64,000 nucleotides of DNA from IMG/VR virus record IMGVR_UViG_3300033069_001465; one strand, written 5' to 3'. Under the pieces are notes generated by a model. That model was not told the DNA's origin. It did not search any database and saw nothing but the letters and a program-made list of their open reading frames with translations. Both the position numbers and the translations under genes were made by a program. The DNA comes from a virus. Taxonomy: Duplodnaviria > Caudoviricetes. This document shows positions 13,078 to 38,839 of the stretch, one piece after another (within the stretch, counting starts at the first letter, position 1; each line of letters begins with the position of its first letter).

Positions 13078-15291
13078 TTATTTTGAGGTATCAATTCCTA
13101 AATCTAAATCAGAATATACTTTATATAATTTATCCTTACTATAATTTGATAATAAGTAGGACTTAAAATCAGAAATATCTATTTCTAGTTTTGAATCATT
13201 TATAAGTTTGTCTAAATTTCTATCAAATACACTACGAATCATATTTCTTAATTCATAAATGGTTAATGCTGATGCGACTTCTGCAACATTCCTTGAAATA
13301 GAATCATTTTTTGAATATAAAAAATTTCTCACTTCTCTATATGAAGAGTTCCAACTATCAGTAAGCATATAATATATATATGATAGTGGCATAAGCTTCA
13401 TCATGATTGTTATTTCACCATCATTCAGGCTATTAGATCCGATGTCTTCTAACATACGTTTAAATCTAATTGGATCAATATTTTTTACTACCTCATCAAT
13501 CGAGTTACCTACAATTTCTTTTAATATTTCATATTTCTCTTTACCTATTTTTTTACTTATTTTTTGATCATTTACATTTTGCCTATATGAGCCATCTGTT
13601 TGATATCTAAAATCATGTAACTCCTTCATAAATTCATCATATTTAATTGTTATTTCCTCAGATGCTTTTATTTCATCTTTTATTTTAAGATAATCAAAAT
13701 AAAAATTAATATCTAACCTTTCAATATAGTTAGTAGGATAAACATATCTATCTGTCTCTTCAACCGGAATATTAAAAAAATCTGATGTTTCTTTGGTTAT
13801 AAAATAATCATTTCTTGATGTGTATGGTATTTTAAGTTCGTCAACAATTTTTGAAAATTCATCTTGATCTTTAACTTTATATACCTTAAAGCAAATGAAA
13901 TTTGGATAGTTATATCCCCATATATCAGATATCTTAAGTTTCACATCATAATTTCTAGCAGAATAAACCGGGCTATTTGTAGCACGGAAATATTCATCTC
14001 CATTTTTAAGCATCTCTTCTGATTTTGTACAGGATTGGTAATTACGCATATCATGATAAATACCCAATGTTGTAGTTTTGGTACCAATGTATTCGGTTAT
14101 AACGTCAACTAAGTAGCTGGTAGGTATTACTCCATATTTTGGATGATCCACAGCAATTTTATTAGGAATCCAATCGTCCATTGCTTTAGAGTAAATAACT
14201 TCTTTCTCCAAATAATATGATCCGGTATAATTGCTATATTTTGCATCCTTTTTATAAATATATGAGTCTAATGATTCTATAAAAACAGCATCATCTCTCT
14301 TTATATAAACGTCTAGACTAACTGAATATCTATGTGTTTTTATGTCTTCCCTTCCAGCAGTATCTAATAATTCAGATATAACAAAATTAGGATATTCACT
14401 ACTTTTATTGACATTTGATACCATTCCATCTCCTGTTATTTTACCTCCTTCTAATCTTTTATATAAGCAGTTAAAAGTATCAGCGTAAGGATATTCATCA
14501 AACTTAACATTTTCTAATTTACACATCATTTCGCCACCTCCAATTTTCGAGTGTGACGCAAATATGTTTTCATCTCCTTTGGCAATGTTTTCGAAGACCC
14601 AATCATGCACATATCTATAATCGCTATCATTTTTATAATAGACCCTATCTAAGTATATTTTTTTACCATTTGTTGATTGATCTAATTTCCATAATAAGGC
14701 CCTTGCTATCAATTTATTATCCTCGGTTAGTATGACCATAGATATTTTATTTGGATTAGATGCATATATTTTCATGTATTTATTCTTTTCAGGAAATCTC
14801 ATACATGAGTTGCCTAGTGTTCCACCACTTCCATAATAGTGATCTTGATTATACCAATACAATATCTTATCACCATTAACTATTTCTATTTTTCTATTTG
14901 TAGAATTTCTCTTATCCCACTCTGCCTTAAATTGATTAACAAATTCCTCAATTTGAGCATCTGTTACATTGGATCCATTATCCATTAATAACTGACGAAC
15001 CATTCGACCAATCTTAGATTTGCTTTTGGTTTTAGTCCATGGATTTTCACCCTTTTCTTTAAATCTTTGATATTGACTATCTGGTAGAAATGAAATTTCA
15101 TCATTTTTATCAGATAGTCCTATTAAGTTATAGTTTGTTTTAACATCATGCTTTCCAACAATTACACCATATAGCTTATTACCAATTGCAGTGTTAGTCA
15201 TACCACCTAGAATAGATAGAAAATCAGCAGAACTAACCATCACTGATTCTAATAATTTGTCAATTAAAAAATTACTATATTTACTAATCAT
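13078..15291 (-). CDS. Uncharacterised 'SCM'-motif protein, paralog 1
   Basis: GTLGNSCMR, ARALLW, YLDRVY, YPYADT; leader MISKYSNFL...LLES. Confidence 0.7.
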   Translation of the reverse strand: MISKYSNFLIDKLLESVMVSSADFLSILGGMTNTAIGNKLYGVIVGKHDVKTNYNLIGLSDKNDEISFLPDSQYQRFKEKGENPWTKTKSKSKIGRMVRQLLMDNGSNVTDAQIEEFVNQFKAEWDKRNSTNRKIEIVNGDKILYWYNQDHYYGSGGTLGNSCMRFPEKNKYMKIYASNPNKISMVILTEDNKLIARALLWKLDQSTNGKKIYLDRVYYKNDSDYRYVHDWVFENIAKGDENIFASHSKIGGGEMMCKLENVKFDEYPYADTFNCLYKRLEGGKITGDGMVSNVNKSSEYPNFVISELLDTAGREDIKTHRYSVSLDVYIKRDDAVFIESLDSYIYKKDAKYSNYTGSYYLEKEVIYSKAMDDWIPNKIAVDHPKYGVIPTSYLVDVITEYIGTKTTTLGIYHDMRNYQSCTKSEEMLKNGDEYFRATNSPVYSARNYDVKLKISDIWGYNYPNFICFKVYKVKDQDEFSKIVDELKIPYTSRNDYFITKETSDFFNIPVEETDRYVYPTNYIERLDINFYFDYLKIKDEIKASEEITIKYDEFMKELHDFRYQTDGSYRQNVNDQKISKKIGKEKYEILKEIVGNSIDEVVKNIDPIRFKRMLEDIGSNSLNDGEITIMMKLMPLSYIYYMLTDSWNSSYREVRNFLYSKNDSISRNVAEVASALTIYELRNMIRSVFDRNLDKLINDSKLEIDISDFKSYLLSNYSKDKLYKVYSDLDLGIDTSK

Positions 15292-16087
15292 GTTCTTTAA
15301 TTAATTTATCGTTTTCTATATTATCATAATCTACATCTATATATTCAGGATGTGGATACTTTTTTAATATAGGGTCATCAACATCATTGACATGTTTGAA
15401 TATGTCTTTTTTATTTATTTTTAACTTATCCTTTAGTAAATCAATTAGATAATTCAATCCATGCTTTGCGGCGAGGGTAGTTACTCCTAATCCTAATGAT
15501 AAGAAATTAGATGGCAAGGTTTCTAGATTCATATCATATTTACCAATCATATAAGAAATAGCATTTAATACAGGTATTAAAAGCGATGTATATCCAAACA
15601 TATCAAAGAATCCATTTATAACATGTCTTTTATTTTTGAATAGTATTTTAAATATATTACCCATTGATTTAATACACGATACTAATTTTTTGACAATTCC
15701 ATTTCCGACTCCTCTTAGTTTTAGTTCTTCTAACATGGATTTAGCATCCTTTTCTAACTTTTTTCTTTCTTGTAATTCTTTATGCTCTTCTAAATAGGCA
15801 ATTGTCATTCCAGCAATTGTCATTAAAACAATTGTTTCTGATGTCAAGTCTATATTCAGACTCATATTGGCAACTAATTTGTTTACTACAGGAAACATTG
15901 ACTGCATACCCACCCCAAATGTTAAAACCATTTGAACGTTTAACTTTAAGTCACTTACTATCTTTTTAAGAACAGTATCATATTCTGTCTTTTCAGATTC
16001 ATTTATTGTATCATTTCCAATAATATTTAGAAATTCTTCTGCCATATCTATGGTCTTACTGTGATCAGAATATCTTAAAAGTTTCAT
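15284..16087 (-). CDS. Putative membrane protein with capsid-targeting-like leader
   Basis: Several hydrophobic segments; MKLLRYSDH...TINES; late motif at 16093-16101. Confidence 0.55.
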   Translation of the reverse strand: MKLLRYSDHSKTIDMAEEFLNIIGNDTINESEKTEYDTVLKKIVSDLKLNVQMVLTFGVGMQSMFPVVNKLVANMSLNIDLTSETIVLMTIAGMTIAYLEEHKELQERKKLEKDAKSMLEELKLRGVGNGIVKKLVSCIKSMGNIFKILFKNKRHVINGFFDMFGYTSLLIPVLNAISYMIGKYDMNLETLPSNFLSLGLGVTTLAAKHGLNYLIDLLKDKLKINKKDIFKHVNDVDDPILKKYPHPEYIDVDYDNIENDKLIKEHD

Positions 16088-16160
16088 ATGAGTATATATT
16101 AAGAAAATCTTTTTGATTTTTCAAATCTAATATATAATATACAAAAACAAATAAAAAATT

Positions 16161-16463
16161 ATGAAATATTTAAAAACGTTTGAGACATTCGGAATTAATA
16201 AAGCATACGCAGTTGAAGAACTTTTAGATGAGGAAGTTTTTAATGAAAAATGTCCTGACTGTAATTGCAATTGTGATGAATGTGATTGTGATGAATGTGA
16301 TTGCAAAAATTGTCAAGGGGAGAGTGTTACTGAAAAAAAGAAAGCACCAAAGAAAGAAAAGGAAGATAAAGAAGATAAGCATGTAAAGAAAAAGGGATTA
16401 ACCGCTAAACAAAAGAAATTACCAGAAGCTTTTCAAAAAGCAATTTTAGCTAAACAAAAGTAA
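16161..16463 (+). CDS. Small Cys-rich/Lys-rich protein with capsid-targeting-like leader
   Basis: MKYLKTFETF; CPDCNCNCDECDCDECDCKNC; basic tail. Confidence 0.7.
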   Translation: MKYLKTFETFGINKAYAVEELLDEEVFNEKCPDCNCNCDECDCDECDCKNCQGESVTEKKKAPKKEKEDKEDKHVKKKGLTAKQKKLPEAFQKAILAKQK

Positions 16464-16487
16464 ACTGATAATTTTAAAAATATAACC

Positions 16488-16516
16488 AAGCCACTTTTTT
16501 TAAGTGGCTTTTTTTA
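16488..16516 (+). terminator. Intrinsic terminator
   Basis: AAGCCACTT-loop-AAGTGGCTT followed by a T run, between convergent genes. Confidence 0.75.
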
Positions 16517-16551
16517 TATTAACGTAGTAAATTTCAATTGTGGTAAGTTAA

Positions 16552-18210
16552 TTATTTTACATCTATCTTCTTAATTGACTCCTGTACCCAATTAGGGATA
16601 TACTGAGAACTATATCTTAATACATCAGAGAAAGACCCATCAATAATTATAGTGTCTGCATGGTCTGTTTTACTTCTTACAGAACGACCTGTCATTTGTA
16701 ATAATCCACAAACCGTTTTCCAAGCATACCATTCTGGATTATTTTTTTGCCTTAACTTATTCTTTTGTGAAGCTAAGCTTGGATATGGAATTTTAGCAAT
16801 AATTTGAAATCTACTTTTATCATGGTCAAAAGATACTCCTGTTCCAACAGATGGACTAACAATTACTGTATCATCTTCTGAATCAAAGTGGTTTTGTAAT
16901 GCCTCATTTTTATCCTCTGAAGTATGAAATACTAATCTGCTATTTCCAACATCATTTTTAATCCAATCCGCCAATTCAAATGAATTAGTATGTATGATTC
17001 CTTTTTTACCTTTATATTTATTTAATAATTTATCAATAAATGGAACATACTTTTTAAAAGTTTCTTCTTTTTGAGTATAACTCATTTTTCCAACTGGCAT
17101 ATAATAAATAGGCCTATTTTTTATCGGAAATGGAGAAGACATTGAATAATATGATGTTTTGGATACATCTATACCATTTAAAGTAGTAAATATTTGCTTA
17201 TTTAAAATTGTTCCAGACATCAAAATAACCATATCATAATTACACCAAACATATTTATTTAGGTAATCATAAGCCCATATTGGTTCTAATGATAATTCAT
17301 TTTGATTTGTTTTTGGATTTACAGATGTTTCTAATACCCAATTGTCTGGATTTTCTTTATATTCTTTTAGAAAAATTTCAATTTTTAATTGATATTGCTT
17401 TAAGTCAGATATTATTTGAAATAATTTTAAATCTTGATTAACACCACCAGTTATCTTAGCAATTTTTAAATCCCTTTTATCCGATAATGGACTTCTTCCG
17501 CCTCCCATTGATTTATCAATAGCATCAATTGTTTCGACAATTTCGACATTTAACTGTGTTAGAAATTCTATATAACTTTTAATATTTTTAACCTTATTAA
17601 AATCCTTGATAATTTGATACTCATTAGTAAATTTCATTCTTTTAATTATACCTTCTGTCATTTTAATAGAAATGAAATCACTCATAACATCATCAAATTC
17701 ATGAGCTTCATCCACTATTAATACTTTTGATCCTCTACTTTCTAATATTTTAGGACTATAGATTGCGTATATTAAATATAAATAGAAATTAGTTAAAGAA
17801 ACCTTACCACCAATATATCCTTGTTTGGCACTATCATATGGACAAAAATCACATTTTGTTTTATTGAGTTTGTTAAATTCCATACCTTGAGCACAACTAC
17901 AAGCATATTGACTACATTTATAGTTTTCTTTACCTTTTAAATCACTAATAGATTCATAAAAGTTGGAATATTGATCCTGTAATATTTTGCTCGCGGTTAC
18001 TATATCTATTTTAGCATCTTTATTAATTTTACTAAGATAAAAATCAGATATCATCATGGATAGATGGCTCTTTCCAACTCCTGTTGGTAGGTTTAAAAGA
18101 AAAAATTTCATATCTGGCTTTTTTTCCAAGACATTGGATATAAAATTTAGAACATCTATTTGGCCTTCTCGTGGAGAAAACTTATTTAAATCATTTTTAA
18201 TATTTGACAT
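16552..18210 (-). CDS. DinG/XPD-family SF2 helicase
   Basis: PREGQ Q-motif, PTGVGKS, LKGKENYKC Cys cluster, DEAH, MSGT, QMTGRSVRS. Confidence 0.85.
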   Translation of the reverse strand: MSNIKNDLNKFSPREGQIDVLNFISNVLEKKPDMKFFLLNLPTGVGKSHLSMMISDFYLSKINKDAKIDIVTASKILQDQYSNFYESISDLKGKENYKCSQYACSCAQGMEFNKLNKTKCDFCPYDSAKQGYIGGKVSLTNFYLYLIYAIYSPKILESRGSKVLIVDEAHEFDDVMSDFISIKMTEGIIKRMKFTNEYQIIKDFNKVKNIKSYIEFLTQLNVEIVETIDAIDKSMGGGRSPLSDKRDLKIAKITGGVNQDLKLFQIISDLKQYQLKIEIFLKEYKENPDNWVLETSVNPKTNQNELSLEPIWAYDYLNKYVWCNYDMVILMSGTILNKQIFTTLNGIDVSKTSYYSMSSPFPIKNRPIYYMPVGKMSYTQKEETFKKYVPFIDKLLNKYKGKKGIIHTNSFELADWIKNDVGNSRLVFHTSEDKNEALQNHFDSEDDTVIVSPSVGTGVSFDHDKSRFQIIAKIPYPSLASQKNKLRQKNNPEWYAWKTVCGLLQMTGRSVRSKTDHADTIIIDGSFSDVLRYSSQYIPNWVQESIKKIDVK

Positions 18211-18286
18211 ATCTGTTATATGTTAAAAAGAGATTATGTTTTACAGCAAGTAATTTTTTACATTATCAATATTTAATATATATGGT

Positions 18287-22121: not shown

Positions 22122-23033
22122 ATGGCTGCACTTACAGGATATTTTGGAGGCAAGAACTCTATGTCAGAATGGATATATTCTTATATTCCAAAGGATATTA
22201 AAACATATGTAGAAGTATTCAGCGGATCTTTTGCAATTTATTTCAATGAGGACTTTTCACATTGTGATAGGATCATTTATAATGATGCTAATAAGTGGCA
22301 GACCAATTTTATGGCTTGTTGTAAAGATCACAATAAGATGATATTCGAAATTGATAAATCATTTAAACCAGGTGGATTTCTTTATTGTAATAAAACTAAT
22401 AAAGATGATATTAAAAAATATTATCGTGATCTGTATACTAATACAAAAAATCCGGAAAAATGTGATTTCTACGACGATCCAAATTTTGATATACCAAACT
22501 ACGAAAAGGGTGTAATTTATTCATTTATGATAACATCAGCGTTTAACGCTTGTCACGCAAGGGGAGCTGGATTTTCAGGATTCTCTAGTTCTGGTAAATT
22601 AAAGCTAACAACACTTATAAATAAATTAAAAAAGGAAGAATTTCAAAAAAAGCTAACGGGTATATCATATATTAAAAATTTAGATTTTGAGGAACTGATT
22701 AATAAATGTGATAGAGAAGATACCTATTTATACTTAGATCCTCCTTACAAATATACGGATGGTATTGGGACACATGATCAAGATTATGGATCTAAAAATA
22801 TATTTGGTGATGAGTCACATGAAAGATTGGCAAAGACATTACAAAAATGTAAGTCAAGATGGTCTTTATCTTACTATTATTTTAAAGAGTTGGAAGAATG
22901 GTTTCCCAAAGATAAATATCATTGGACATCAAAAGAGTTTCATAGATCATCATCATCATTTTCAGAAAATAAGTCCAAGGGTGTTGAACTGTTAATAATG
23001 AATTATAATCCTGAAACAGGTGAAAAGATTTAA
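22122..23033 (+). CDS. Dam-like (D12 class) DNA adenine methyltransferase
   Basis: YFGGK, YVEVFSGS, YND, YLDPPY, ELLIMNY. Confidence 0.9.
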   Translation: MAALTGYFGGKNSMSEWIYSYIPKDIKTYVEVFSGSFAIYFNEDFSHCDRIIYNDANKWQTNFMACCKDHNKMIFEIDKSFKPGGFLYCNKTNKDDIKKYYRDLYTNTKNPEKCDFYDDPNFDIPNYEKGVIYSFMITSAFNACHARGAGFSGFSSSGKLKLTTLINKLKKEEFQKKLTGISYIKNLDFEELINKCDREDTYLYLDPPYKYTDGIGTHDQDYGSKNIFGDESHERLAKTLQKCKSRWSLSYYYFKELEEWFPKDKYHWTSKEFHRSSSSFSENKSKGVELLIMNYNPETGEKI

Positions 23034-24560
23034 TTAGCTACAATCTGGACAATCTATCATACCGTCACCATCACAACGGTTACATGTATGCCTTCCACGG
23101 CCATCACATTCGGAGCAATCAACTTCACCTCCACCACTACATTCATCACAATCAACTTTACCCTTACCTTTACAATCTTCACATTTTACACCATCGTCAT
23201 CCACACCTTCGCCATCACATGAGTCACAATCAACTTTACCCTCTCCATCACAGTCTCTACAATCAACTGTTCGATTGCCATCACATTCGGAACACTCAAC
23301 TCTACCTTCACCATAACATTCATAACATTCAATTCTTCCCTCTCCATCACATCTATCACACCCACTAGACCCATCATATCCACCACTGGTACTTTCTAAG
23401 CATTTTGATCCACGAATATCATCGGTGCTTAATATACCATTATCGCTATCAAAATTTTTTAATGTATCTACATAAGGAAATTTTGTATAAACAATACTAT
23501 TATTAATTTTAACGGATAGTTCATCATGGTAAATTTCTTTTCCTTCTGGAGATATTACTGTTCCTTCAGGACTACTATCGTTTCTTTTTTTACTAAACCA
23601 TTTTTTAGACTTTGCATAATCTTTAAATAATTGTACATCAGAGTCATCTTGTGTGTAGATTCTATCCATAAATATTATTTCAGGATCACTTAATTTCCAA
23701 ACAAGTGCTCTACCTTTTATTTTATCCGGATTATCATCACTTCTAAGTATTAATAAACTACAAACCTCTGGATTTTTTGTATAAATTTGAAAAAATGATA
23801 CAGGGACAGTTGCCATACACGAATTTCCTAATGTTCCTCTATTTGTTCCATGTAAATAATTTTTAGAGTTATAAAAGTGTCCGATATCATCACCAGAGAC
23901 CAACTCGAAGCTTCTAAAAATATCATTCATTCTATCATAGGCTGATTTGTATTTATTGACAAAGTCTTCAATTTCAGCATCTTTAAATGAAGATCCAGAT
24001 GCAGCTAATAATGCTCTTATTCCTCTACCAGTTCGAACCGATTGTCTATTTTTAGACCATACCTCTGTATTTTCATCATAAGTGATGTTTTGCTCATTTA
24101 TTACACACTCACCATCTTCAAACTTAACATATAAGTAGGTTTTCCCACTACTCGGAGATATTGCTTTTTTAATTATTTCTCCCCTTTCTTCATCTTCTGG
24201 CTTATATCCAGTATCACCTTTAGGAATATATCCCAATAACTCAAATATTCTACCATTTTGTTCTATATTATGTGTTAATATAGGACCATTTTTATAAATT
24301 ACATATTTACCTTTAGACTCACCTAAAATTTCTTGAGCTTTTCTATCCGCTATAAAAGATATAGTATCTTTACTATCATCAATATCAAAGTAGTTAGAAG
24401 GTACTTTTAAATCTTTTGTTTCTATATCAACTAATGATTTAGCAACAGGAGATTCAATTTCCTTTAATAACTTTCTAAATTTTTGAGAATAGACAATTTC
24501 TGATTCATTAATCATTGTTAATGCCTGTTCAAGTATAAAATCATCATATTTAGATATCAT
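23034..24560 (-). CDS. 'SCM'-motif protein, paralog 2, with C-terminal DnaJ-type CxxCxGxG repeats
   Basis: GTLGNSCM, GRALVW, FMDRIY, FPYVDT; about 9 CxxCxGxG units. Confidence 0.7.
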   Translation of the reverse strand: MISKYDDFILEQALTMINESEIVYSQKFRKLLKEIESPVAKSLVDIETKDLKVPSNYFDIDDSKDTISFIADRKAQEILGESKGKYVIYKNGPILTHNIEQNGRIFELLGYIPKGDTGYKPEDEERGEIIKKAISPSSGKTYLYVKFEDGECVINEQNITYDENTEVWSKNRQSVRTGRGIRALLAASGSSFKDAEIEDFVNKYKSAYDRMNDIFRSFELVSGDDIGHFYNSKNYLHGTNRGTLGNSCMATVPVSFFQIYTKNPEVCSLLILRSDDNPDKIKGRALVWKLSDPEIIFMDRIYTQDDSDVQLFKDYAKSKKWFSKKRNDSSPEGTVISPEGKEIYHDELSVKINNSIVYTKFPYVDTLKNFDSDNGILSTDDIRGSKCLESTSGGYDGSSGCDRCDGEGRIECYECYGEGRVECSECDGNRTVDCRDCDGEGKVDCDSCDGEGVDDDGVKCEDCKGKGKVDCDECSGGGEVDCSECDGRGRHTCNRCDGDGMIDCPDCS

Positions 24561-28190: not shown

Positions 28191-30134
28191 GTGAAATTAA
28201 AGACATATAGTGATTTTTTATTAGAATCTGTATTATATACGTCGGATGAGTTTAAAAAGGTTCTTTCATCAATGAATGATGAAACCGCCAGACATTTATT
28301 ATCTCTTATTGATAAAGATATCAAGACAAATTATAATATTCTAAAAACAACTGATGCAAATGATACTATTTCATTTATACCAGATAATCAAGCAATTACA
28401 AAATTAAAGTCCATAAATTTACCAGCTTTATTTTTAAGCAAAGCTAATACAACGTCTATTGGTAGAATATGTAGGTCTATATTAAATGATAACGGAATTA
28501 GCAAAACTGATAAAGAAATGGAAATTTTTGTTAATGGATTTAAAGCGGCTTATGATAAAATTAACACTAAAGAAGATTCAATAAGAATAGTTAGTGGTGA
28601 GGATATTAGATATTGGTATTTTGAGGAAAGATATTGTGATGCTACTAGAAGAAGCAGGGGAAGCTTAGGTAAATCTTGTATGAGATATGATGAAGCTCAA
28701 GATTATCTCAATATTTACGTAAAAAATCCCGATGTATGTAAATTAGTAATACAAGTAGATGAAGGAAATAAACTCTTATCAAGAGCCCTTTTATGGGAAA
28801 CAACAAACAACTCACTTTATTTAGATAGAGTTTACTATACCAATGATTCAGATAATCAATTATTAGCATCTTGGACAAAAGAAAAATTTAAGGATAGAAA
28901 TGTAATTTTTATTGGCACTAGGGAAAAACTCGAAGTTAAGTTAGGACCAATATTAGATTATGTGCAATATCCCTATATGGATTCATTTGTTTATTTTTAT
29001 GCAGGTGAGCAAAAATTATATAACTATGACCCTGATAAGGTGGAAAGAAAAAAGCTATTTTACTTACAAGAAACTGATGGATCAGCAGATAGACAAGATA
29101 ATAGATTTTGTGAATATATTGAAGAAACATGGCCAGAGGATGACTGTGTTTGGTGTGAAAAGATACATAGCTATTTACCCAAACATATGGCTGTTTGGAG
29201 TGAGTATTGCAATTCATTTTTATATAGAGAAAACGCAGTTCAATCAACTATTATTAATGACTATTTAGACTCACAAGATTCTATTTATGTATATATGGAT
29301 AGCAATGGCAGAACAGGAGTTTGGTATCCAGATGATAGTAAATATCGAGGTGAGTATGAACAAGATGAGATGAGTGGTGAATTTTATATTAAAGATTTAC
29401 TGATTCAACATAATGGATCTTACTATCTAAGAGATAAGTCTGTTTTTGTTTATTCTATTTTAGAGGAATCAGAAGCAGAGTATGAAAAAATATACCATTC
29501 TAAATCTTTTATCTCTTCAGAATTGGATAATAAAGTATTTGGATTTAAACTGTCCGAAGATTTTGATGTGGGGTCCAAGTATAATTTCTATCGAAATGTT
29601 TATAAAAATGTTAAATATAAAGAGTTTATGGAAAAATTAAATTCTTTAGAGGGAATTGATAAGAAATATATTGATTTAAAAATTACAGAGCTTAATGATG
29701 CAGATGCTGTCCTTAGAAGAGGTACTGATTTCTATAAAATTAATAATATTCTTTATGAAGAATTTGATACTGATCCTATTCAAATCATGAAAGAATACCG
29801 AAGAAATATAGAATCTGGGTTTGATGAATCATTCGATTTTTTAAAAAATCGAATTGGGTGGCCAGATGTAATTAAATACAGAGATGAGATAAAGTATTTT
29901 TCACTTAATCCTATAATAAATGATAGATATTTATCAAATTTTAGTAGAAATGAATTTCCTATTGTAAAAGAAAAGCTACTTGAAAAGAATAGTGGTATGA
30001 GCTTAGAAGAACAACATCAAATTGCCCATTCAATAGTAGGTACTTGTGAAAGAATTGTAAGTAGGATTTTAAGCACTGAGTATGGATACATAATTTACTA
30101 TTACTTAACACATACAAACCAATTTAAACAATGA
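28191..30134 (+). CDS. 'SCM'-motif protein, paralog 3
   Basis: GSLGKSCMRY, SRALLW, YLDRVY, YPYMDS; leader MKLKTYSDFLLES (GTG start). Confidence 0.7.
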   Translation: MKLKTYSDFLLESVLYTSDEFKKVLSSMNDETARHLLSLIDKDIKTNYNILKTTDANDTISFIPDNQAITKLKSINLPALFLSKANTTSIGRICRSILNDNGISKTDKEMEIFVNGFKAAYDKINTKEDSIRIVSGEDIRYWYFEERYCDATRRSRGSLGKSCMRYDEAQDYLNIYVKNPDVCKLVIQVDEGNKLLSRALLWETTNNSLYLDRVYYTNDSDNQLLASWTKEKFKDRNVIFIGTREKLEVKLGPILDYVQYPYMDSFVYFYAGEQKLYNYDPDKVERKKLFYLQETDGSADRQDNRFCEYIEETWPEDDCVWCEKIHSYLPKHMAVWSEYCNSFLYRENAVQSTIINDYLDSQDSIYVYMDSNGRTGVWYPDDSKYRGEYEQDEMSGEFYIKDLLIQHNGSYYLRDKSVFVYSILEESEAEYEKIYHSKSFISSELDNKVFGFKLSEDFDVGSKYNFYRNVYKNVKYKEFMEKLNSLEGIDKKYIDLKITELNDADAVLRRGTDFYKINNILYEEFDTDPIQIMKEYRRNIESGFDESFDFLKNRIGWPDVIKYRDEIKYFSLNPIINDRYLSNFSRNEFPIVKEKLLEKNSGMSLEEQHQIAHSIVGTCERIVSRILSTEYGYIIYYYLTHTNQFKQ

Positions 30135-30172
30135 CATATATAATCCATATAAATTAAAAATTATTAATAAGT

Positions 30173-30700
30173 ATGGATGACATCTTCCCAAGTAGAAAAG
30201 AAATACTAGAAAGTAAGAAATCACAAGGATATCAAGATACCTTAGTTGAAGAAATTAAATCAATTGATGTGGAAAAGATTGATTTTTCTAAAGGTGATTT
30301 TAAGCCAAGAACAAAAATTGCAGAGAAACAAAAGGTATTTTTTTGGATAAGAGTTTATCTAAATAATGAGGATAAATCTTGTAAACCAGATGATGTTATT
30401 AAAATTAAACATATTCCTTCTGGCGAAATACTAGAAACGAAATTCATATGTTATTCTAAAAAAGGTGTTGACAAAGACTCACAAGATGAAATTGTAAATT
30501 ATAGTACAGAGGATGATAAAAAGGTTCTTTGTTTAATGGTTGACTCTGATAGAATTAATGCCGATAGTAAAGATATACCATTTATAAGGTCCCTTTTCAG
30601 AACAAGTAAGTTTTTCGAATTTAATTTAGTTAAGAGAGATGAATTGCTATTTGTGAATGCAAAAGGCAAGAAATTTGAATATTATGATGTAAGTTTCTAA
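30173..30700 (+). CDS. Hypothetical protein
   Basis: 175 aa ORF upstream of the polymerase fragment. Confidence 0.6.
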   Translation: MDDIFPSRKEILESKKSQGYQDTLVEEIKSIDVEKIDFSKGDFKPRTKIAEKQKVFFWIRVYLNNEDKSCKPDDVIKIKHIPSGEILETKFICYSKKGVDKDSQDEIVNYSTEDDKKVLCLMVDSDRINADSKDIPFIRSLFRTSKFFEFNLVKRDELLFVNAKGKKFEYYDVSF

Positions 30701-30751
30701 CCATTAAAATGTGTAAGGCAATTATCAAAAATAAATAAAAGATTAGAATTT

Positions 30752-32254
30752 ATGTTAGTGGATACCCAATTTTTAACCAATACTAAAAGATTGGTTGTTA
30801 GTTATGTAGATAAATCAGGTGATATCAAGCTTAAATATTATGAGTGGGATAATCCACAAAAATATGTTGTTTGTGATGAAAATGATAAGGATGCGCACCC
30901 ACTATATAAATCATGGGATGGTAAGCATGTTAAACTAATTGAAGTAACACACCCGGATAGATATGCCATTTATGAATTTTTAGACCAACTTCCAGATTCA
31001 GAAAAAGAAGAAATATTTGAATATAATCTACCTGGTATATACTTTGTCGATATTGAAACCGAAATCGTGGATGGATTTCCTGATGCTGAAACAGCTCCTA
31101 CTAGAGTTTTATCTATATCAATCGTTTATGAGGATAAAATTATTTTATTGGGTCTAAGAGATATGCCGGAGGATATGCAGGAAAGAATTAGAACTAATAC
31201 GAATAAGTATTTTGAGAAATTTAATTCTGATTATAAATTTAAATACATCAAATATGATGATGAATTTGATATGTTATATGCATTCTTCAATAAAATGACA
31301 ATTAAGATGCCGATCATTACTGGTTGGAACTTCATTAATTATGACTGGGTTTACTTGGTTAATAGAAGTAAAAAGCTTAAGAAGAATTTTAATGGTAAAG
31401 AATATTCCATAAATCCAGCGGTTTCTTCTCCAACAAAGAGGCTAAATAAGGTTTGGAATTCTACAGAGGAAATTCCAGCACATAGAATGATATTTGATTA
31501 CATGCAACTTTATGAAATATGTGATACTTCAATTAAGGTAAAAGAATCATCATCATTAGACTTTGTTTCTAATAAGTTGGTTGGTGTTGAGAAGATTAAA
31601 TATACTGGATCATTACAAAAACTATATGAAGAGGATTTTGAGACATTTATGTATTATAATGCAGTTGACTCTGTTCTTGTTCAAAAAATACATGAAGCCC
31701 GAAACTATATCTCAATTATATATGCGATTTCTTCATTAGCAAAGATTAAAATTGTTGATGTTATTTCTCAAATGAATAATGCTTTAGGATCACTTGCTAT
31801 TACAGAGGGAGTTTTAAGAAATAGATTTAGAGAACAAGAGAACATAGTCCTATTTAGACCTGAAAAGGATGAATCTAGTAATGGCGGTCATGGTATTGCT
31901 GGTGGATGGGTTAAAGATCCAATTGTTGGTATGAATCAATGGTGTGCAATTTATGACTTCGCTAGTCTTTATCCAACAACACAACGGCAGTTCTATATTG
32001 CACCTGAAAATTTTATTGGAATAAAAGATGATAAGAATCCAGAATATTGTGATAATGGACTTCCTATAGACCCAATTAATCATGTTATTTGTGCTAATAA
32101 CGCTGTTTTCTTAAAAAGAGAATCCCCAACAATAAAAATGTTGAAGGATGTTTATGATGATAGGAAAAAGAATAAGAAGATAATGATGAATAGAAAGGAA
32201 GAATTAAAAGCGGTATTAGATGAAATAAAACAATTAGAAGAAGAATTATTCTAA
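30752..32254 (+). CDS. B-family DNA polymerase, N-terminal half (split gp43-like)
   Basis: FVDIET ExoI, GWNFINYD ExoII, YNAVD ExoIII, GGWV, YDFASLYP motif A; ends in the first fingers helix without motif B or YGDTD. Confidence 0.85.
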   Translation: MLVDTQFLTNTKRLVVSYVDKSGDIKLKYYEWDNPQKYVVCDENDKDAHPLYKSWDGKHVKLIEVTHPDRYAIYEFLDQLPDSEKEEIFEYNLPGIYFVDIETEIVDGFPDAETAPTRVLSISIVYEDKIILLGLRDMPEDMQERIRTNTNKYFEKFNSDYKFKYIKYDDEFDMLYAFFNKMTIKMPIITGWNFINYDWVYLVNRSKKLKKNFNGKEYSINPAVSSPTKRLNKVWNSTEEIPAHRMIFDYMQLYEICDTSIKVKESSSLDFVSNKLVGVEKIKYTGSLQKLYEEDFETFMYYNAVDSVLVQKIHEARNYISIIYAISSLAKIKIVDVISQMNNALGSLAITEGVLRNRFREQENIVLFRPEKDESSNGGHGIAGGWVKDPIVGMNQWCAIYDFASLYPTTQRQFYIAPENFIGIKDDKNPEYCDNGLPIDPINHVICANNAVFLKRESPTIKMLKDVYDDRKKNKKIMMNRKEELKAVLDEIKQLEEELF

Positions 32255-32743: not shown

Positions 32744-32747
32744 ATTA

Positions 32748-32755
32748 CAAAGATA
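32748..32755 (-). promoter_or_regulatory. Bacteroidota sigma-A -7 element (TATCTTTG)
   Basis: TATCTTTG-TAAT-ATG, identical to the sites at 35799 and 50716. Confidence 0.7.
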
Positions 32756-32759
32756 CTAA

Positions 32760-32995
32760 TTAAATCACTAACTCATTAAGTTTTTCATATCTATTGATTT
32801 CCAATGTTTCAAAACAATTTTTATGATAATAGACAATTTCTCCATTATCATCTTTTATTTTAATCATTGGATCATCTTTAAATTGATTTATAATATTTAG
32901 GCAGTCGTATATTTTACCTATGGTTAGATATAGATATTCTTCTTTTGTTCTTTTGTTCTACCCGGTAATTTTTTACTTATGCAAACTATTTTCAT
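32760..32995 (-). pseudogene. Small gene frameshifted by an 8-nt tandem duplication
   Basis: Removing one AGAACAAA copy (32944-32959) restores a 75-aa ORF MKIVCIS...YLTIGKIYDC...RYEKLNELVI. Confidence 0.65.
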
Positions 32996-33008
32996 AGTTA
33001 AAAATTTT

Positions 33009-33722: not shown

Positions 33723-33741
33723 ATATTTTGTTAGTTTTTAA

Positions 33742-33786
33742 CTAACAAAATTTGAGCTCTTTGGTGTAGATGTATATTTTAATCAT
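33742..33786 (-). promoter_or_regulatory. Putative leader uORF (MIKIYIYTKELKFC*) ending inside a 12-bp hairpin
   Basis: Hairpin 33725-33751 ends 2 nt before the downstream ATG; the uORF TAG lies in its 5' arm. Confidence 0.45.
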
Positions 33787-33792
33787 AAAAAG

Positions 33793-33818
33793 AAATAAAC
33801 AGCAGTCCAATTCCGCTG
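33793..33818 (-). terminator. Putative intrinsic terminator of the tmRNA transcript
   Basis: CAGCGG-AATTGGA-CTGCTG followed by TTTATTT. Confidence 0.5.
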
Positions 33819-33832
33819 AGGTTATTAAAAAG

Positions 33833-33912
33833 AAACCAACTCGGCTGACCAGAGAAAACACCTACCTATTTTTTTCAAGGCTGTCCAGCTTTTTATCCTA
33901 CCTTGTTGGTTT
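33833..33912 (-). ncRNA. Structured hairpin RNA B with two YAGG/YUGGWCAG internal loops
   Basis: AAACCAAC/GTTGGTTT base stem; motif shared with hairpin A. Confidence 0.5.
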
Positions 33913-33916
33913 TTTG

Positions 33917-34281
33917 TGGAGGTGGGGAGCTCCGACTCTCCCGTCTTCTTCAGTTAATAATAACTAATCATTTACAAGCTTAGATAATTTTTCTAAAGTA
34001 TCAAAATAGTTAGTTAATTTATACTCACAAATAACTTAACAAAAACCTATCACTATTTACTGTTGTGATTCAGGTGAATTTTTTTATGAAAGTATCAATT
34101 AAGCTACTTCAAGCTCATTCACAATGAGTAAGTTGTTGCGTAGAGCAAATACTAAATCTTCTTTGCTTGCTACTTCGTTTGTTTTGCCGTTTAAAGCGTT
34201 GATGTCAATTTATTAATCGGATAACTCAGCCGATGCTTGCTTAACTACCATTACGATGCGAATCTATTCCAATTCACCCCC
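33917..34281 (-). ncRNA. ssrA: Phage-encoded tmRNA
   Basis: 5' GGGGGTG pairs with 3' CACCTCC-A giving G3-U70; GAC-GGGAG/CTCCC T-arm; 365 nt; internal tag ORF 34188-34099. Confidence 0.88.
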
Positions 34282-34287
34282 ATAATT

Positions 34288-34352
34288 TAAAGAAACTGAC
34301 CAGAAGTGCGTCCTATCTTTTTCAGACTGACCAAAACCTTCCTGTTTCTTTA
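34288..34352 (-). ncRNA. Structured hairpin RNA A (tmRNA 5' leader) with two YAGG/YUGGUCAG internal loops
   Basis: TAAAGAAAC/GTTTCTTTA base stem; starts right after the promoter. Confidence 0.5.
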
Positions 34353-34383
34353 CAAAGATATATATAATATTTGAAAACTCAAA
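34353..34383 (-). promoter_or_regulatory. Bacteroidota-type promoter for the tmRNA locus
   Basis: TTTG-N19-TATCTTTG. Confidence 0.75.
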
Positions 34384-34388
34384 AAAGT

Positions 34389-34685
34389 TTAAATTTCAAT
34401 AGTGAAAAACCAAGGATCTTTCGAATCTTTTGGATATTTAGATTTACCCATGATGATATCAATAAGTTCATTACCATTTATACCAACAATTTTCCTTGCT
34501 AGAATTCCTGTTTTGCCACTATCAATCAGATTTTGAATATTATCCTCAATAGGCAATTCATTAAGTGATTTTGGTTTTCCTGGTTGTGTTGATGCTATAC
34601 GGAAAGCATCTTTTTCATCTTTAGCAATAATAAAGTGTGACTTTGCATTTTTACCTTTATTATGGACATCATAAAATTTATTCAT
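34389..34685 (-). CDS. Hypothetical protein
   Basis: 98 aa ORF in the early operon. Confidence 0.55.
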   Translation of the reverse strand: MNKFYDVHNKGKNAKSHFIIAKDEKDAFRIASTQPGKPKSLNELPIEDNIQNLIDSGKTGILARKIVGINGNELIDIIMGKSKYPKDSKDPWFFTIEI

Positions 34686-34694
34686 ATTTTTATT

Positions 34695-35171
34695 TTAAAT
34701 TGTTAATAGTAAATTTAACTTATTATTTCTTATTATTCTTTCTCTCTCATCTTTTTCTTCACATATTCTATAGACTGAGCAAGAATCGTTACCAACATTC
34801 CAAATAGCATCAACTTCATATTCATTAATATTAATATTGGACTTTGTTTCATTCCAATATATATCATAAGCATTATAATTATGCAAAAGGGTCCCTCGTC
34901 CTTTTACTAAGGTTAAAAATCCTTCATTTTTAACAAGTAATTTATTACTCATTCTTGCAGCATTTTTTATCTCTCTAATAGAGTCTTCATTAAAGCTCGA
35001 AGAAGATTTATCTAAATTGTAAATTTTATTAAAGGTATTTGAAAATTCATACCCAATATCCCAGGATATTTGATTTGCCCAATTTGTATATGTATTATAC
35101 AAAATGAGATAATCATGATTTAACTGATGATCATATAAGAAAACCGAGTATATTTTATAGATTAAGTCCAT
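34695..35171 (-). CDS. Hypothetical early protein
   Basis: C-terminal IRNNKLNLLL. Confidence 0.6.
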   Translation of the reverse strand: MDLIYKIYSVFLYDHQLNHDYLILYNTYTNWANQISWDIGYEFSNTFNKIYNLDKSSSSFNEDSIREIKNAARMSNKLLVKNEGFLTLVKGRGTLLHNYNAYDIYWNETKSNININEYEVDAIWNVGNDSCSVYRICEEKDERERIIRNNKLNLLLTI

Positions 35172-35794
35172 TAGTCAATTTTAATAATCTCATCAGTATA
35201 TTCTCCACCTAAGTGAAATGTCATATATCCAAATCTATGCTGGTCGTCGACCTTAACATAGTATTTTTTGGTCCCAATATCAATTATAAATACACTTTTT
35301 GGTAGTGTATCTGTTTTCTTAAAGTGAACTCTCAGTTTATCCTCTATTAACATCCATAAAATCTTCATAACTCTATATTCTAAATAAGAACACATTTTAT
35401 CAAGTTTATAATATTCTTGACCTAATTCAAATGATTCATCATGTGAAAGAATAAAGTCAAGCTTTTCTTGACGGCCAGCAACTATATCTTTTGAAAATTC
35501 GACTCTGCCCTGTCCGATACTATGTGATCTATATTCAGAGTTATATTTAAAAGTATAATAATAAATATTATTATTATCTTTAGGATGATAATAATAGATA
35601 ACATGTTCATCTTTACTATTTTTTGGAATCTTATCAACTATTTCCTTGATAAATTCAGATCTAGATTTCCATCTTTTATTTGATCTTTCCTTGGCTTTTT
35701 CATAAAGTGCATGAATTTGTTCAATAGTCCACTCTTTAGGCTTTCTATTGAACTTCCTTTCAAATGAATTCGAATAGAGAAAATTATAATTCAT
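35171..35794 (-). CDS. Hypothetical early protein (start revised to MNYNFLY)
   Basis: TATCTTTG-TAAT-ATG at 35806-35792. Confidence 0.6.
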   Translation of the reverse strand: MNYNFLYSNSFERKFNRKPKEWTIEQIHALYEKAKERSNKRWKSRSEFIKEIVDKIPKNSKDEHVIYYYHPKDNNNIYYYTFKYNSEYRSHSIGQGRVEFSKDIVAGRQEKLDFILSHDESFELGQEYYKLDKMCSYLEYRVMKILWMLIEDKLRVHFKKTDTLPKSVFIIDIGTKKYYVKVDDQHRFGYMTFHLGGEYTDEIIKID

Positions 35795-35795
35795 A

Positions 35796-36017
35796 TTACA
35801 AAGATATGACAATTCCACGAATTATCCTAACAATATCTATGGTACTTACTACCAAACACTTATTAGTTATTTCGTCTATTCTCCTTTTGGGTATATCATA
35901 ATGTGTTTTATGAAACCAACATCTTTTAATATTAAGATTATCTGCCATTTTATGTAAGTTTTCAATGGAGTATGGAATGCAAATTAGATGTCTTTTAGTA
36001 TCACAATAATATTTCAT
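35796..36017 (-). CDS. DUF4031-like small protein
   Basis: S-x-ENLHKMA...KRCWFH...HYDI pattern. Confidence 0.55.
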   Translation of the reverse strand: MKYYCDTKRHLICIPYSIENLHKMADNLNIKRCWFHKTHYDIPKRRIDEITNKCLVVSTIDIVRIIRGIVISL

Positions 36018-36038
36018 ATTTAATATATATAATTAATT

Positions 36039-36455
36039 ATGAAATATCTTAAATTATTTGAAAATTTTAGAGAAATAAAAATCGATGAATATAACAAAAT
36101 TGATAAACCAGAAGAACTTAATAAAAGGGAATTAGACCTAGTAAAGAAATTCGCAGATATCAATGAATGGGACCTTTTCTACCTAACAAGAAATTCTGAT
36201 ATTCAATTAGAGTTTTATAAAAGGAATGGTGATTATTTTTATAGAATATCAATAGATAAACAATATGATGAGTATTATTTAGTTTCAGTTGATTTTGAGG
36301 ACTTTGGTAGTCCAAATAAAGATAGCAGCAGATATTTTATATTAGATACATATGAGGAGCTGAATGAATTCTTACTAAAAATTGAAAAATTTTACAAGCA
36401 TAAACGACTGTTTAATACACAATCAATTATACAACCTCCGAAATGGATAATTTAA
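36039..36455 (+). CDS. Hypothetical protein with capsid-targeting-like leader (CDQ-like)
   Basis: MKYLKLFENF; KQYDEYYLV...YFILDTYEEL. Confidence 0.6.
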   Translation: MKYLKLFENFREIKIDEYNKIDKPEELNKRELDLVKKFADINEWDLFYLTRNSDIQLEFYKRNGDYFYRISIDKQYDEYYLVSVDFEDFGSPNKDSSRYFILDTYEELNEFLLKIEKFYKHKRLFNTQSIIQPPKWII

Positions 36456-36772
36456 TCTACAACTACACCAACTTTCTTATAAAATTGTAAATTTTCGGCC
36501 TTATCAACTAATTCTTGGTCAGCTATCGTTTTGTTTCCATACCACCATCCACCAACACCATCATGTCCAAGATAGAACACTTCATCTCCTAATTTAATAT
36601 CTTTTCTTGAAAAAGCATACCTATCTTTTTCTAACTCAAATCCAATTTTATACCCAAGATCCTCACATTCCTTCGAGGTAAATGTTGGAAGAACTATTCT
36701 CTGTGCAGTATGAGATACTTTTTTAATAGTTCTGTCAAAAAATCTTTCGTTAAATTTTTTAATATGTTTCAT
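36452..36772 (-). CDS. Hypothetical protein with capsid-targeting-like leader
   Basis: MKHIKKFNE. Confidence 0.6.
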   Translation of the reverse strand: MKHIKKFNERFFDRTIKKVSHTAQRIVLPTFTSKECEDLGYKIGFELEKDRYAFSRKDIKLGDEVFYLGHDGVGGWWYGNKTIADQELVDKAENLQFYKKVGVVVD

Positions 36773-36786
36773 TATCTAAATTTTTT

Positions 36787-37227
36787 TTAAAATGGAACTT
36801 CGCCTTCAATATCATTTAATGAAGTAGGTGCCGCCACATCTTCATCATAGAAGAATTTAGCTGTTATTAAAGGTTCACCACTTTTGACTTCCCATAAATC
36901 GAACTCAGATTCGTATTGTATTAGGATATCAGTTTCTAGCTTCTTAAGTAGATTCATAATTTTCATAACACTACCTATTTTTTCTGTTTTATTTAAAACA
37001 AATTGAACATTAATGCTGCCTTCATCATCAGTAAATACATAATAATTCTCAAATCCAGAATTTTTTATCATTTTTCTAAGTGTAGATAGTAAGTTTTCAA
37101 TGATATCATCCTGAGCTATTTCTTCAACTTCCTCAAGTTCAGGAATTTCAGGATAGTCATCTAATGGTTGATCTATATCATCAAACCCTTCTCTTTCGTT
37201 AATTTCAAAGTATTTTTTAAGTTTCAT
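36787..37227 (-). CDS. Acidic hypothetical protein (start revised to MKLKKYFEINE)
   Basis: ATG at 37227 immediately after the upstream stop. Confidence 0.6.
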   Translation of the reverse strand: MKLKKYFEINEREGFDDIDQPLDDYPEIPELEEVEEIAQDDIIENLLSTLRKMIKNSGFENYYVFTDDEGSINVQFVLNKTEKIGSVMKIMNLLKKLETDILIQYESEFDLWEVKSGEPLITAKFFYDEDVAAPTSLNDIEGEVPF

Positions 37228-37228
37228 A

Positions 37229-38839
37229 TTATCCAATTTGTATTTTTAAAATGTTACCATCAAATTTTATATCAGGATTACATCTATGCATTAATAAAAT
37301 TGTTTCAATTTGTGATAAATCATCATAAGCATTTCTTAAAGAGACATCATCAAATTCAATTGAAACAACCACTTTACCTTCTACTCCTTTAATAGTAGAA
37401 TCATTGAAAAATATCGACTCTTTTAGATCCCTTATTAAGTCAGACCATTTTTCCAATACTTCAGAATCAAATCCAATTTTTCTCTTTATAGTAAGTTTAT
37501 TCCAATCAGCGGCTACACAAGCTTTGGCTAATCTTTCTAAATAAGTCATATTCTGAATCTCATCGTGTGTATGTTCATTAAAATATCCAACAGATACATT
37601 AGTACACTCTGGAACATAATCAACAAAATTATAGGAATCAGTAAATACACCTGTAGGATCTAGGTTCAATTTTAAACCACTTTTATTTAATTCTTTACAA
37701 AGTGATTCAGCAAACTCATTTGAGCAGCATCTCATTCCCATTTGCTCTGTGATAACAGAAAAGTAGTTTCTTCTATCAAATGAAATTACTTTCTTAATTT
37801 CTTTAAGAAATTCAAATGATTTGAAATCATCAGCCACTTTACCAGATCCAATTCCACCTCTTTCTTCACCTAAGAAGAAATAATAAACTCCTGGAACATT
37901 ATGAGCCATCATATACATCATTACTGCAACTCCAGCTTTATCATCTGCTCCTAGAATAGTTGTACCATCACTCATTATGTAATCTTGTCCATTTTTTGAC
38001 TGTGCTACTAATATAATATCACTTTTATCTCTTGATGCTGTATCTAAGTGTGATGTAAACATAGTATCGGATTTACCAATTATATGGTAAAGATTACCAT
38101 ATTTATCAGTTTGTAATCCTTCTGGTAAATATTTATAAACACCTTCTTCATGACCATGTGGATATGTTTCGGTTGTTAATGATATAAAAGTGGATCTAAC
38201 ATCTTTAGGATTAAATTTGAATTCAGGTACTTGAATCTCATCATCAGATTTATTGAGTGCTCTATTTTTAATTTTATTGTAATCCCTTACAAAGTTATAT
38301 ATTGTTCCTTTGTCAAATTTATTTCCAAAAAATGTTCTTATGAATTCCGCTATTTTAATTAATCCCCTTCTTCCATTTGGATAGTAAACATCAAAGCTGA
38401 AATCTGTATCAGAAACATCTAATTTCTCAATGCCAAATTTATTTTTTATTTCGGGATTTTGCTCAATATCAAGCAGTGCCCAACAAATTTGATCATCTAT
38501 TTTATCCAACATCATTGCGAAGTCATCCGTAAATTTAATTTGGATACTTTCTTTATCAATTTGTTTTTTACCGCTTCCCATATTTTTATTTGATATGTTT
38601 TTAAAAACCTTTAAAAATTCCTCAAACTCTTTCTTGTTGTATTTAGTATATCCTAAAACCTCTTCAAGTACCTTCATAGTAAGACTATCCTTGCCGATAG
38701 TAATTTTTTCAGTATAGTTAGGTGCATTTGAATTAATAGCTTTCAGATCATTAATAAGCCTATTGACTTTTTTTATTCCTAATTTTTCCATAGAGTCAAA
38801 GATATCACTTGCTCCTTTTGTTAAATAAACTCCTGTCAT
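37229..38839 (-). CDS. M20/M28 zinc peptidase with N-terminal extension
   Basis: SHLDT, LGADDKAG, GEE, FDRR, NEHT metal-ligand motifs. Confidence 0.85.
   Translation of the reverse strand: MTGVYLTKGASDIFDSMEKLGIKKVNRLINDLKAINSNAPNYTEKITIGKDSLTMKVLEEVLGYTKYNKKEFEEFLKVFKNISNKNMGSGKKQIDKESIQIKFTDDFAMMLDKIDDQICWALLDIEQNPEIKNKFGIEKLDVSDTDFSFDVYYPNGRRGLIKIAEFIRTFFGNKFDKGTIYNFVRDYNKIKNRALNKSDDEIQVPEFKFNPKDVRSTFISLTTETYPHGHEEGVYKYLPEGLQTDKYGNLYHIIGKSDTMFTSHLDTASRDKSDIILVAQSKNGQDYIMSDGTTILGADDKAGVAVMMYMMAHNVPGVYYFFLGEERGGIGSGKVADDFKSFEFLKEIKKVISFDRRNYFSVITEQMGMRCCSNEFAESLCKELNKSGLKLNLDPTGVFTDSYNFVDYVPECTNVSVGYFNEHTHDEIQNMTYLERLAKACVAADWNKLTIKRKIGFDSEVLEKWSDLIRDLKESIFFNDSTIKGVEGKVVVSIEFDDVSLRNAYDDLSQIETILLMHRCNPDIKFDGNILKIQIG

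Follow-up and report, generated by a model that had tools for sequence, protein, structure and literature searches.

An N-terminal module shared by SCM proteins and an M28-like peptidase of a large phage: a possible transferase-peptidase pair

Why would one phage encode three paralogous proteins of no annotated family and, in the same region, a peptidase that carries the same N-terminal module? The question is raised by a 64,000-nucleotide stretch of viral DNA (Duplodnaviria; Caudoviricetes; IMG/VR virus record IMGVR_UViG_3300033069_001465), hereafter the window, in which a preliminary description made from the DNA letters had singled out open reading frames (ORFs) at 13078, 23034, 28191 and 37229. 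All four are present at these positions. The first three encode P0001, P0002 and P0003, which we call SCM proteins after a Ser-Cys-Met motif in their cores, and the last encodes P0004, a predicted zinc peptidase. What is new here is the demonstration that a homologous copy of the SCM module has become part of the peptidase. We propose that SCM proteins and peptidases form a coupled transferase-peptidase pair with a common targeting module, a reading to which we assign a probability of about 0.5.

The SCM proteins have a general layout, i.e., an N-terminal alpha/beta module of ~125 amino acids (aa), a core of ~160 aa, and then a C terminus that differs from protein to protein. P0001 (13078..15291, minus strand, 737 aa; N-module hidden Markov model [HMM] 2.4e-37, core HMM 5.5e-45) consists of an N-module (aa 1-132, nucleotides [nt] 14896-15291), a GNAT-like core (aa 133-287, nt 14431-14895) and a unique C-terminal region (aa 288-737). 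P0002 (23034..24560, minus strand, 508 aa; recognized by BLASTP and by PF25436, BSD2_CRD, at 6e-7) has an N-module (aa 1-215, nt 23916-24560) that holds an insertion of ~85 aa, a core (aa 216-383, nt 23412-23915) and CxxCxGxG zinc-finger repeats (aa ~400-508, nt 23037-23363). P0003 (28191..30134, plus strand, GTG start), identical to a 647-aa protein already on record, has an N-module (aa 1-128, nt 28191-28574), a core (aa 129-285, nt 28575-29045) and a unique C-terminal region (aa 286-647). By sequence comparison the three are paralogous, which we regard as established: P0001 aligns with P0003 over residues 2-381 (BLASTP expectation value [E], 4e-53) and with P0002 at an E of 2e-30, with an extra N-terminal piece at 1e-4. 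The motifs that had been listed as common to the three (G-x-LG-x-SCM, Y-x2-NP, RAL(L/V)W, (L/M)DR(V/I)Y and PY-x-D) all appear, at matching positions of the alignment. The C termini do differ, as had been noted; P0002 ends in zinc-finger repeats, and P0001 and P0003 have only ~75 aa past the core in common. The repeats of P0002 comprise at least eight tandem CxxCxGxG-type units (BSD2/DnaJ-like), and fusion to BSD2-type zinc fingers (PF25436) recurs in other members of the SCM family.

Does the peptidase really carry this module ahead of its catalytic domain, as the preliminary description proposed? Several observations indicate that it does, and we consider the homology established. Alignment of 41 SCM modules with 47 peptidase modules (P0004 residues 96-205 and homologues) by hhalign scored 97.3%, with an E of 2.5e-11, over 88 columns, essentially the whole module. 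The matches are reciprocal in that an HMM built from peptidase modules alone picks P0002 among the window's 432 ORF fragments (E, 4e-7), while the SCM-module HMM places P0004 residues 101-208 as its fourth-best match in the window (E, 0.005). In a model of P0004 residues 1-212 (predicted local distance difference test [pLDDT], 88.3), residues 101-195 form a strand, two helices, three strands and two helices, which is the order of elements in the SCM module model. The best BFVD matches of this model are the uncultured-marine-phage proteins that top the list of the SCM model (for the best, A0A8D9CCN7, the E is 8e-5 and the root mean square deviation 2.2 A over 95 columns), and the peptidase N terminus superposes on SCM-family models. 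The relation is visible at the profile level only; a BLASTP comparison of P0001 with the peptidase gave no match. No known fold matched the module, which was seen only inside larger models and was not folded by itself, and an HMM search of the window ORFs found no fifth carrier. A predicted complex of P0004 with P0003 residues 1-290 scored 0.01, which is uninformative either way. Might the peptidase even hold the module twice, as had been suggested? Residues 1-95 of P0004 do resemble the final helix-loop-helix of the module (hhalign, 48-67% over 25-31 columns), but the rest of the module is unmatched there and most homologues have a single copy. Judged from this alignment, a degenerate second copy in residues 1-95 is possible.

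The peptidase itself (37229..38839, minus strand, 536 aa) is laid out as an N-terminal extension (aa 1-95, nt 38555-38839), the SCM-type module (aa 96-205, nt 38225-38554), a catalytic domain (aa 206-455, nt 37475-38224) and a C-terminal domain (aa 456-536, nt 37232-37474). P0004 matches phrog_4191, “peptidase,” at 7e-70. Across 50 homologues, no variation is seen at D299, D300, E325, E326, D355 and H423, and conservation of H264 and D266 is at least 90%, so that P0004 holds the co-catalytic ligand set of M28 (H, bridging D, E, D and H) together with the general-base E-E pair. Based on the family match and these metal ligands, we predict that P0004 is a clan MH, M28-like di-zinc exopeptidase, and it looks catalytically competent. 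The earlier label “M28 peptidase” needs some adjustment. M28-like is fair, given that phage homologues pass the cutoff of PF04389 (21.3 bits), with 24.7 for SU503 gp12 and 33.0 for Zenivior gp23, and with the LR756501 peptidase just below it at 21.0. However, P0004 itself has no Pfam match at an E of ≤0.1, and its nearest solved sequence relatives in PDB, like its local NCBIfam matches, are of the peptidase T type (M20B), over the metal-site motif only. The H-x-D, D, E-E, D, H pattern of P0004 is that of both the clan MH M28 aminopeptidases and peptidase T/tripeptidase (M20B; PDB 3rza and 3gb0); unlike these classical enzymes, P0004 adds the N-terminal extension, the SCM-type module and a C-terminal domain of 80 aa. 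Most homologues are ~450 aa long and start with a single domain of 110 to 120 aa equivalent to P0004 residues 96-205, and many homologues are without the module.

What, then, is the SCM core? An AlphaFold2 model of P0003 residues 1-290, built from an alignment of 62 sequences, has a pLDDT of 92.7 and a predicted template modeling score (pTM) of 0.87, and because of these values we treat module and core as one compact unit in the model. In this prediction the core (residues 124-290) matches the GNAT fold from beta1 to beta5, in the order beta1-alpha1-alpha2-beta2-beta3-beta4-alpha3-beta5-(alpha4)-beta6; the match is moderate, and all of the top structural matches belong to the GNAT superfamily. 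Thus, going by the model, the core is a divergent GNAT-fold domain with invariant S-C-M, Tyr, Arg...Trp, Asp-Arg-x-Tyr and Pro-Tyr-x-Asp, and the suggestion of a GNAT-like fold with a conserved Cys is well supported (C163 is found in 326/326 cores). The likeness to GNAT N-acyltransferases such as AAC(3)/AAC(6'), RimI, VipF and Hpa2 (PDB 5u08, 7wx6, 7n1l and 1qsm) is one of predicted fold, with differences in several respects. Motif A, the Q/R-x-x-G-x-G/A pyrophosphate loop between beta4 and alpha3, is lacking, and the segment that binds the pyrophosphate of acetyl coenzyme A (acetyl-CoA) is replaced by a nonconserved, Gly-free loop (DRVYY-TNDSDN-QLL in P0003; family consensus DRVY...D....LF). 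There is no alpha4 helix in the model. Nor is there membership at the level of sequence profiles: no GNAT-clan model was among the 25 most often matched of the 56 Pfam families hit at an E of ≤1 by 62 members, and P0001 to P0003 gave no GNAT Pfam match at an E of ≤0.1 and no NCBIfam GNAT match either. What the SCM proteins add to the GNAT plan is the invariant S-C-M loop and the obligatory N-terminal module of ~125 aa. Because the classical acetyl-CoA motif is absent, “acetyltransferase” should not be assumed. The S-C-M loop would lie between alpha1 and alpha2, as judged from the order of secondary-structure elements and not from coordinates. In GNATs, the alpha1-alpha2 region lines the acceptor site. 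Could the Cys instead belong to a Cys-His-Asp acyl-enzyme of the arylamine N-acetyltransferase (NAT) or papain-like class? No invariant His is seen in the family alignments of 326 cores and the fold is GNAT-like rather than papain-like, which makes a triad of either type unlikely.

Few positions of the family are as well conserved as those of the quoted motifs. C163, M164 and Y176 occur in 326/326 cores, with no exception; R198, W202, D212, Y215, P261 and D264 are kept in 325/326, and R213 is kept in 321/326. That all SCM proteins start with a shared module is true of P0001 to P0003, and the module is real across the family, being found in 318/324 collected proteins. Of these 324, 316 have the N-module-core architecture and 2 have it twice over; the latter are the metagenomic proteins P0274 (910 aa) and P0275 (980 aa), which are tandem duplications of the whole unit. 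Because module and core travel together in the collected proteins, we consider the N-module to be part of the enzyme unit. The family is very large, phage restricted and without annotation. When the representatives of 50%-identity clusters were searched exhaustively with a profile of just the core, at least 5,694 of them matched at an E of ≤1e-3 and 4,468 at an E of ≤1e-10. A word-indexed search returned 75 relatives that are similar in length and 122 that are longer, all of them “hypothetical,” with BSD2_CRD as the sole Pfam domain on any; the longer, fused forms held no other informative Pfam domain. In a protein atlas, the clusters nearest to the SCM proteins are viral. Scans against Pfam, PHROGs, NCBIfam and PADLOC gave no meaningful family match for the SCM proteins, a sequence-profile search of PDB returned antibody noise only, and literature searches turned up no account of the family; the earlier statement that no characterized system of this form is known agrees with these searches. 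One candidate was set aside, namely PcfJ-like (PF14284), which is a protein-language-model neighbor at 0.83 only and is not among the Pfam matches listed for 62 members.

If SCM proteins and peptidases act together, are their genes found together? Among 50,697 phage records searched by tblastn with P0003, the SCM family occurs in 12 (7 Cellulophaga phages and 5 huge uncultured phages). All 12 carry the peptidase, compared with 393 of the 50,697 overall; the records were matched by accession for the 5 uncultured phages, by locus for phi38:1 and Calle_1, and by equal group counts for the other Cellulophaga phages. The expected co-occurrence of the two families is therefore seen, and often the genes are adjacent. 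The peptidase gene lies directly upstream of the SCM gene in Cellulophaga phages phi38:1 (gp038/gp037) and Calle_1, the 735-kb LR756501 has the cluster peptidase-SCM-SCM-SCM-peptidase-SCM, and on a 591-kb contig just one 69-aa ORF separates the two. A 270-kb relative of the window phage holds three SCM genes and a module-bearing peptidase inside 17 kb, with the peptidase a few genes from an SCM gene, and it keeps the order of SCM gene, small ORF and family-B DNA polymerase gene that is seen at 28191-32254 in the window. Linkage is established, and adjacency is real, if not universal. At the loci inspected, the peptidases adjacent to SCM genes are without the module and the module-bearing ones (in the window and in the 270-kb relative) are not adjacent, but the sample is too small for this pattern to carry weight. 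Two huge phages have their best peptidase match tens of kilobases away from every SCM core, and in them it starts at about residue 94 to 100 of P0004. Four huge phages, counted over their whole genomes, have 17, 7, 8 and 14 SCM cores and 5, 4, 5 and 8 peptidases, respectively. Two side observations concern these genomes. Beside the LR756501.1 cluster (431477-448733) lie genes for a PPK2 polyphosphate kinase, an ADP-ribosylglycohydrolase and a DNA-ligase-like protein. In the 636-kb LR756504.1, SCM cores and peptidase domains lie in frames that are unusually long (~470-870 aa) relative to those of the other huge phages, which may mean extra fused domains or a different genetic code.

Does the pairing extend to smaller phages? 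In podoviruses of Klebsiella (Drulisvirus), Pectobacterium, Cronobacter, Vibrio and Pseudomonas, gp11-like proteins of 556 to 713 aa (phrog_6980/phrog_13313) are encoded directly upstream of a homologous peptidase, ahead of the primase. Their record counts partly mirror those of the peptidase (231 versus 230 for Klebsiella, 42 versus 42 for Vibrio and 10 versus 10 for Escherichia). They have in common with the SCM core the ordered motifs SSCM, Y, RA(I/L), YVRxYG and PY(L)D; hhalign against the core is weak (E, 0.01-0.016, with low probability). The SCM model also matches proteins of Klebsiella phage KpV48 and Shigella phage Buco weakly in BFVD, for which membership in the gp11-like group was left unchecked. 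We think it rather likely that the podovirus gp11-like proteins belong to the SCM family, and the SCM-peptidase adjacency is probably found in Klebsiella and Pectobacterium podoviruses also. The gp11-like proteins end in Cys-rich CxxC segments.

How might such a pair work? Catalysis, donor, target and order of steps are what we infer from this point on. The SCM unit may be a transferase whose use of acetyl-CoA, if any, departs from the classical one. Because the pyrophosphate loop is absent, another acyl donor might be used, or the acyl group might be passed via the invariant Cys. Aminoacyl-tRNA is a conceivable donor, by comparison with Mom, FemX and Leu/Phe-tRNA-protein transferase, whose GNAT folds lack the CoA-binding motif. 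Mom of phage Mu has been described as such a protein, with Gly-tRNA as its donor (PMC13219725). There are differences, in that no sequence similarity between these enzymes and the SCM proteins is detectable, the key Mom residues R111, S124, D149 and R151 are unmatched in SCM by any alignment, and FemX (4ii9) stands low in the Foldseek list of the SCM model (rank 46, probability 0.51); the use of tRNA by SCM proteins is conjecture. An exopeptidase partner would suit the tRNA-donor idea because an amide-linked amino acid is a natural exopeptidase substrate. We posit that the module serves as a common recognition or docking element for the SCM enzyme and the peptidase and that the paralogue-specific C termini probably set target specificity. 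In one order of events, the transferase would attach an acyl or aminoacyl group to an amine of a protein or of another macromolecule, to be removed or trimmed by the peptidase; in the other, the peptidase would act first to expose the acceptor. Because they have the module in common, occur in the same phage genomes and often lie in adjacent genes, the two families most likely serve one two-enzyme pathway with the same target. A strict writer/eraser relation, as the preliminary description had it, is a plausible but on balance doubtful version of this pairing. We also speculate about a more specific and distinctly less probable version, reversible aminoacylation, in which a non-acetyl-CoA GNAT-fold class puts an amino acid or short peptide on macromolecules and the peptidase trims or erases it. 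Here the donor would be aminoacyl-tRNA or an acyl-Cys163 intermediate, the targets would be host or phage macromolecules chosen by the C termini, and the peptidase would be brought to them by the common module or by coupling at the gene level.

Are there precedents for the parts of this proposal? Phage T4 encodes the paralogous ADP-ribosyltransferases Alt, ModA and ModB, which are thought to hit different host targets. These enzymes (discussed in PMC7824862) resemble the SCM proteins in that one phage deploys several paralogous modifiers, but they differ in fold and chemistry and have no dedicated peptidase partner. Rac (gp28) of the Pseudomonas phages LUZ19/phiKMV couples GNAT action to proteolysis of the alpha subunit of host RNA polymerase (PMC7552054). 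As in the proposed pair, acyl transfer by a phage protein is coupled with cleavage during host takeover; this is an analogy and Rac is no relative. Rac is a predicted canonical GNAT with an intact acetyl-CoA pocket, its gene follows that of the phage RNA polymerase, and it works through unidentified host proteases. Mom and Rac come closest in function to the proposed pair, and neither is related to it.

Several observations weigh against a coupled pair. The functional roles of SCM proteins and peptidase are all predictions from sequences and models, and the missing invariant His makes a papain- or NAT-type triad around the Cys unlikely. The 399 collected proteins include no SCM-peptidase fusion. 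The window's peptidase gene lies 7 kb from the nearest SCM gene; in four huge phages, an SCM gene is the direct neighbor of only 4 of 22 peptidase genes, a modest enrichment over the ~1.8 expected by a rough estimate; and in Thermus phage P74-26 and Bacillus phage pW2, looked at as controls, no SCM-like gene lies within 3.5 kb of the peptidase gene. The peptidase family is thus wider than the SCM pairing. Could the module then be a localization or assembly domain that places these enzymes in a phage structure (the replication compartment, the replisome or the virion), with no common substrate or pathway? SCM genes do lie among replication genes, with DnaB, helicase and PolB in the window and with primase, helicase and polymerase downstream in the podoviruses, and many peptidase homologues are without the module. 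We nonetheless think this unlikely, given that the module is modeled as packed against the SCM core (pTM, 0.87) and is duplicated along with it in the tandem proteins, as fits an integral enzyme part better than a detachable tag; moreover, no further window protein carries it, and gp037 and gp038 are not marked as structural in the phi38:1 record, though other genes are.

Might the pair act instead on a small molecule, a nucleotide or a DNA base? A GNAT-type N-acyltransferase together with a clan MH deacylase is an established metabolic motif. ArgA/ArgE is a pairing of this kind, and an ArgA/ArgE- or DapD/DapE-like couple, or Mom-like aminoacylation of DNA followed by trimming, could be imagined here, all the more as Mom is a phage GNAT-fold enzyme able to place an amino acid on DNA and the genes lie in a replication and nucleotide-metabolism region near a Dam methylase and ribonucleotide reductase. 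Yet 3 to 17 paralogues per genome with large and differing C termini, DnaJ-type zinc fingers included, point to many macromolecular targets, and no other biosynthetic genes are conserved beside the pair, which in our estimation makes this explanation improbable too. Finally, are the SCM proteins enzymes at all? They might be noncatalytic binders or decoys on a GNAT-like scaffold, with the common module a by-product of domain shuffling among fast-evolving large phages and no functional coupling; the missing acetyl-CoA motif, the lack of any family-model match and the weak enrichment of adjacency in huge phages speak for this. What makes this very improbable is that nine residues (polar, aromatic or proline) are each retained by at least 325 of the 326 cores, representatives of 50% clusters included, which has the look of an active-site signature, along with the 12/12 co-occurrence at the genome level and the recurrence of adjacency across unrelated phage lineages.

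Why does a coupled transferase-peptidase pair matter? The SCM family, which matches nothing in Pfam or NCBIfam and no named PHROG, is among the larger phage protein families without any annotation. Large phages carry 3 to 17 copies each, and a strict, active-site-like set of residues is kept around one cysteine. A module common to a transferase-like enzyme and a peptidase is a Rosetta-stone-type clue to one target, and the isolated module is a handle on that target. Klebsiella, Pectobacterium and Vibrio podoviruses, among them some under study for phage therapy, have probable distant members in their early regions, and because of this the pair could be approached genetically in easy systems. 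If acyl or aminoacyl transfer without CoA proved true, it would be the second phage case after Mom and possibly a new reversible modification in host takeover; if the modification were reversible aminoacylation, the system would be widespread, from 40-kb podoviruses to 735-kb phages.

The surroundings of the four ORFs are those of a large phage. The window is AT rich (GC, ~27%) and holds a replication and nucleotide-metabolism block, with genes for a ribonucleotide reductase (7965-10472), a DnaB-type helicase (11620-12960), a DEAD_2/ResIII-type helicase (16552-18210), a Dam-type methylase (22122-23033) and a family-B DNA polymerase (30752-32254). The last lies two genes downstream of P0003, as it does downstream of the P0003 orthologue in the 270-kb relative. 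A 338-kb metagenomic contig encodes a protein of the length of P0004 whose first 230 residues are identical to those of P0004, and because this near-identical peptidase sits on a contig of such size, we take the window phage to be a jumbo phage. ARAGORN and Rfam (at the gathering threshold) found no tRNA, transfer-messenger RNA or other Rfam family anywhere in the window; therefore, no RNA partner can be proposed here. The small genes that neighbor the four ORFs show no paralogy among them. The start of P0004 is not MKYLKxFE-like, and a looser version (M-I-S-K-Y-x-x-F...ES; family consensus F..ES) opens the SCM proteins, ahead of the stretch that they have in common with the peptidase. Starts like MKYLKxFE are found on many unrelated ORFs of the window, e.g., those at 16161, 36039, 38851-39237 (minus strand), 41544-42428 (minus strand) and 62912-63337 (minus strand), and also on a flavodoxin/FMN-reductase-like protein (39659-41557, minus strand) that is split by an intein with a LAGLIDADG homing endonuclease.

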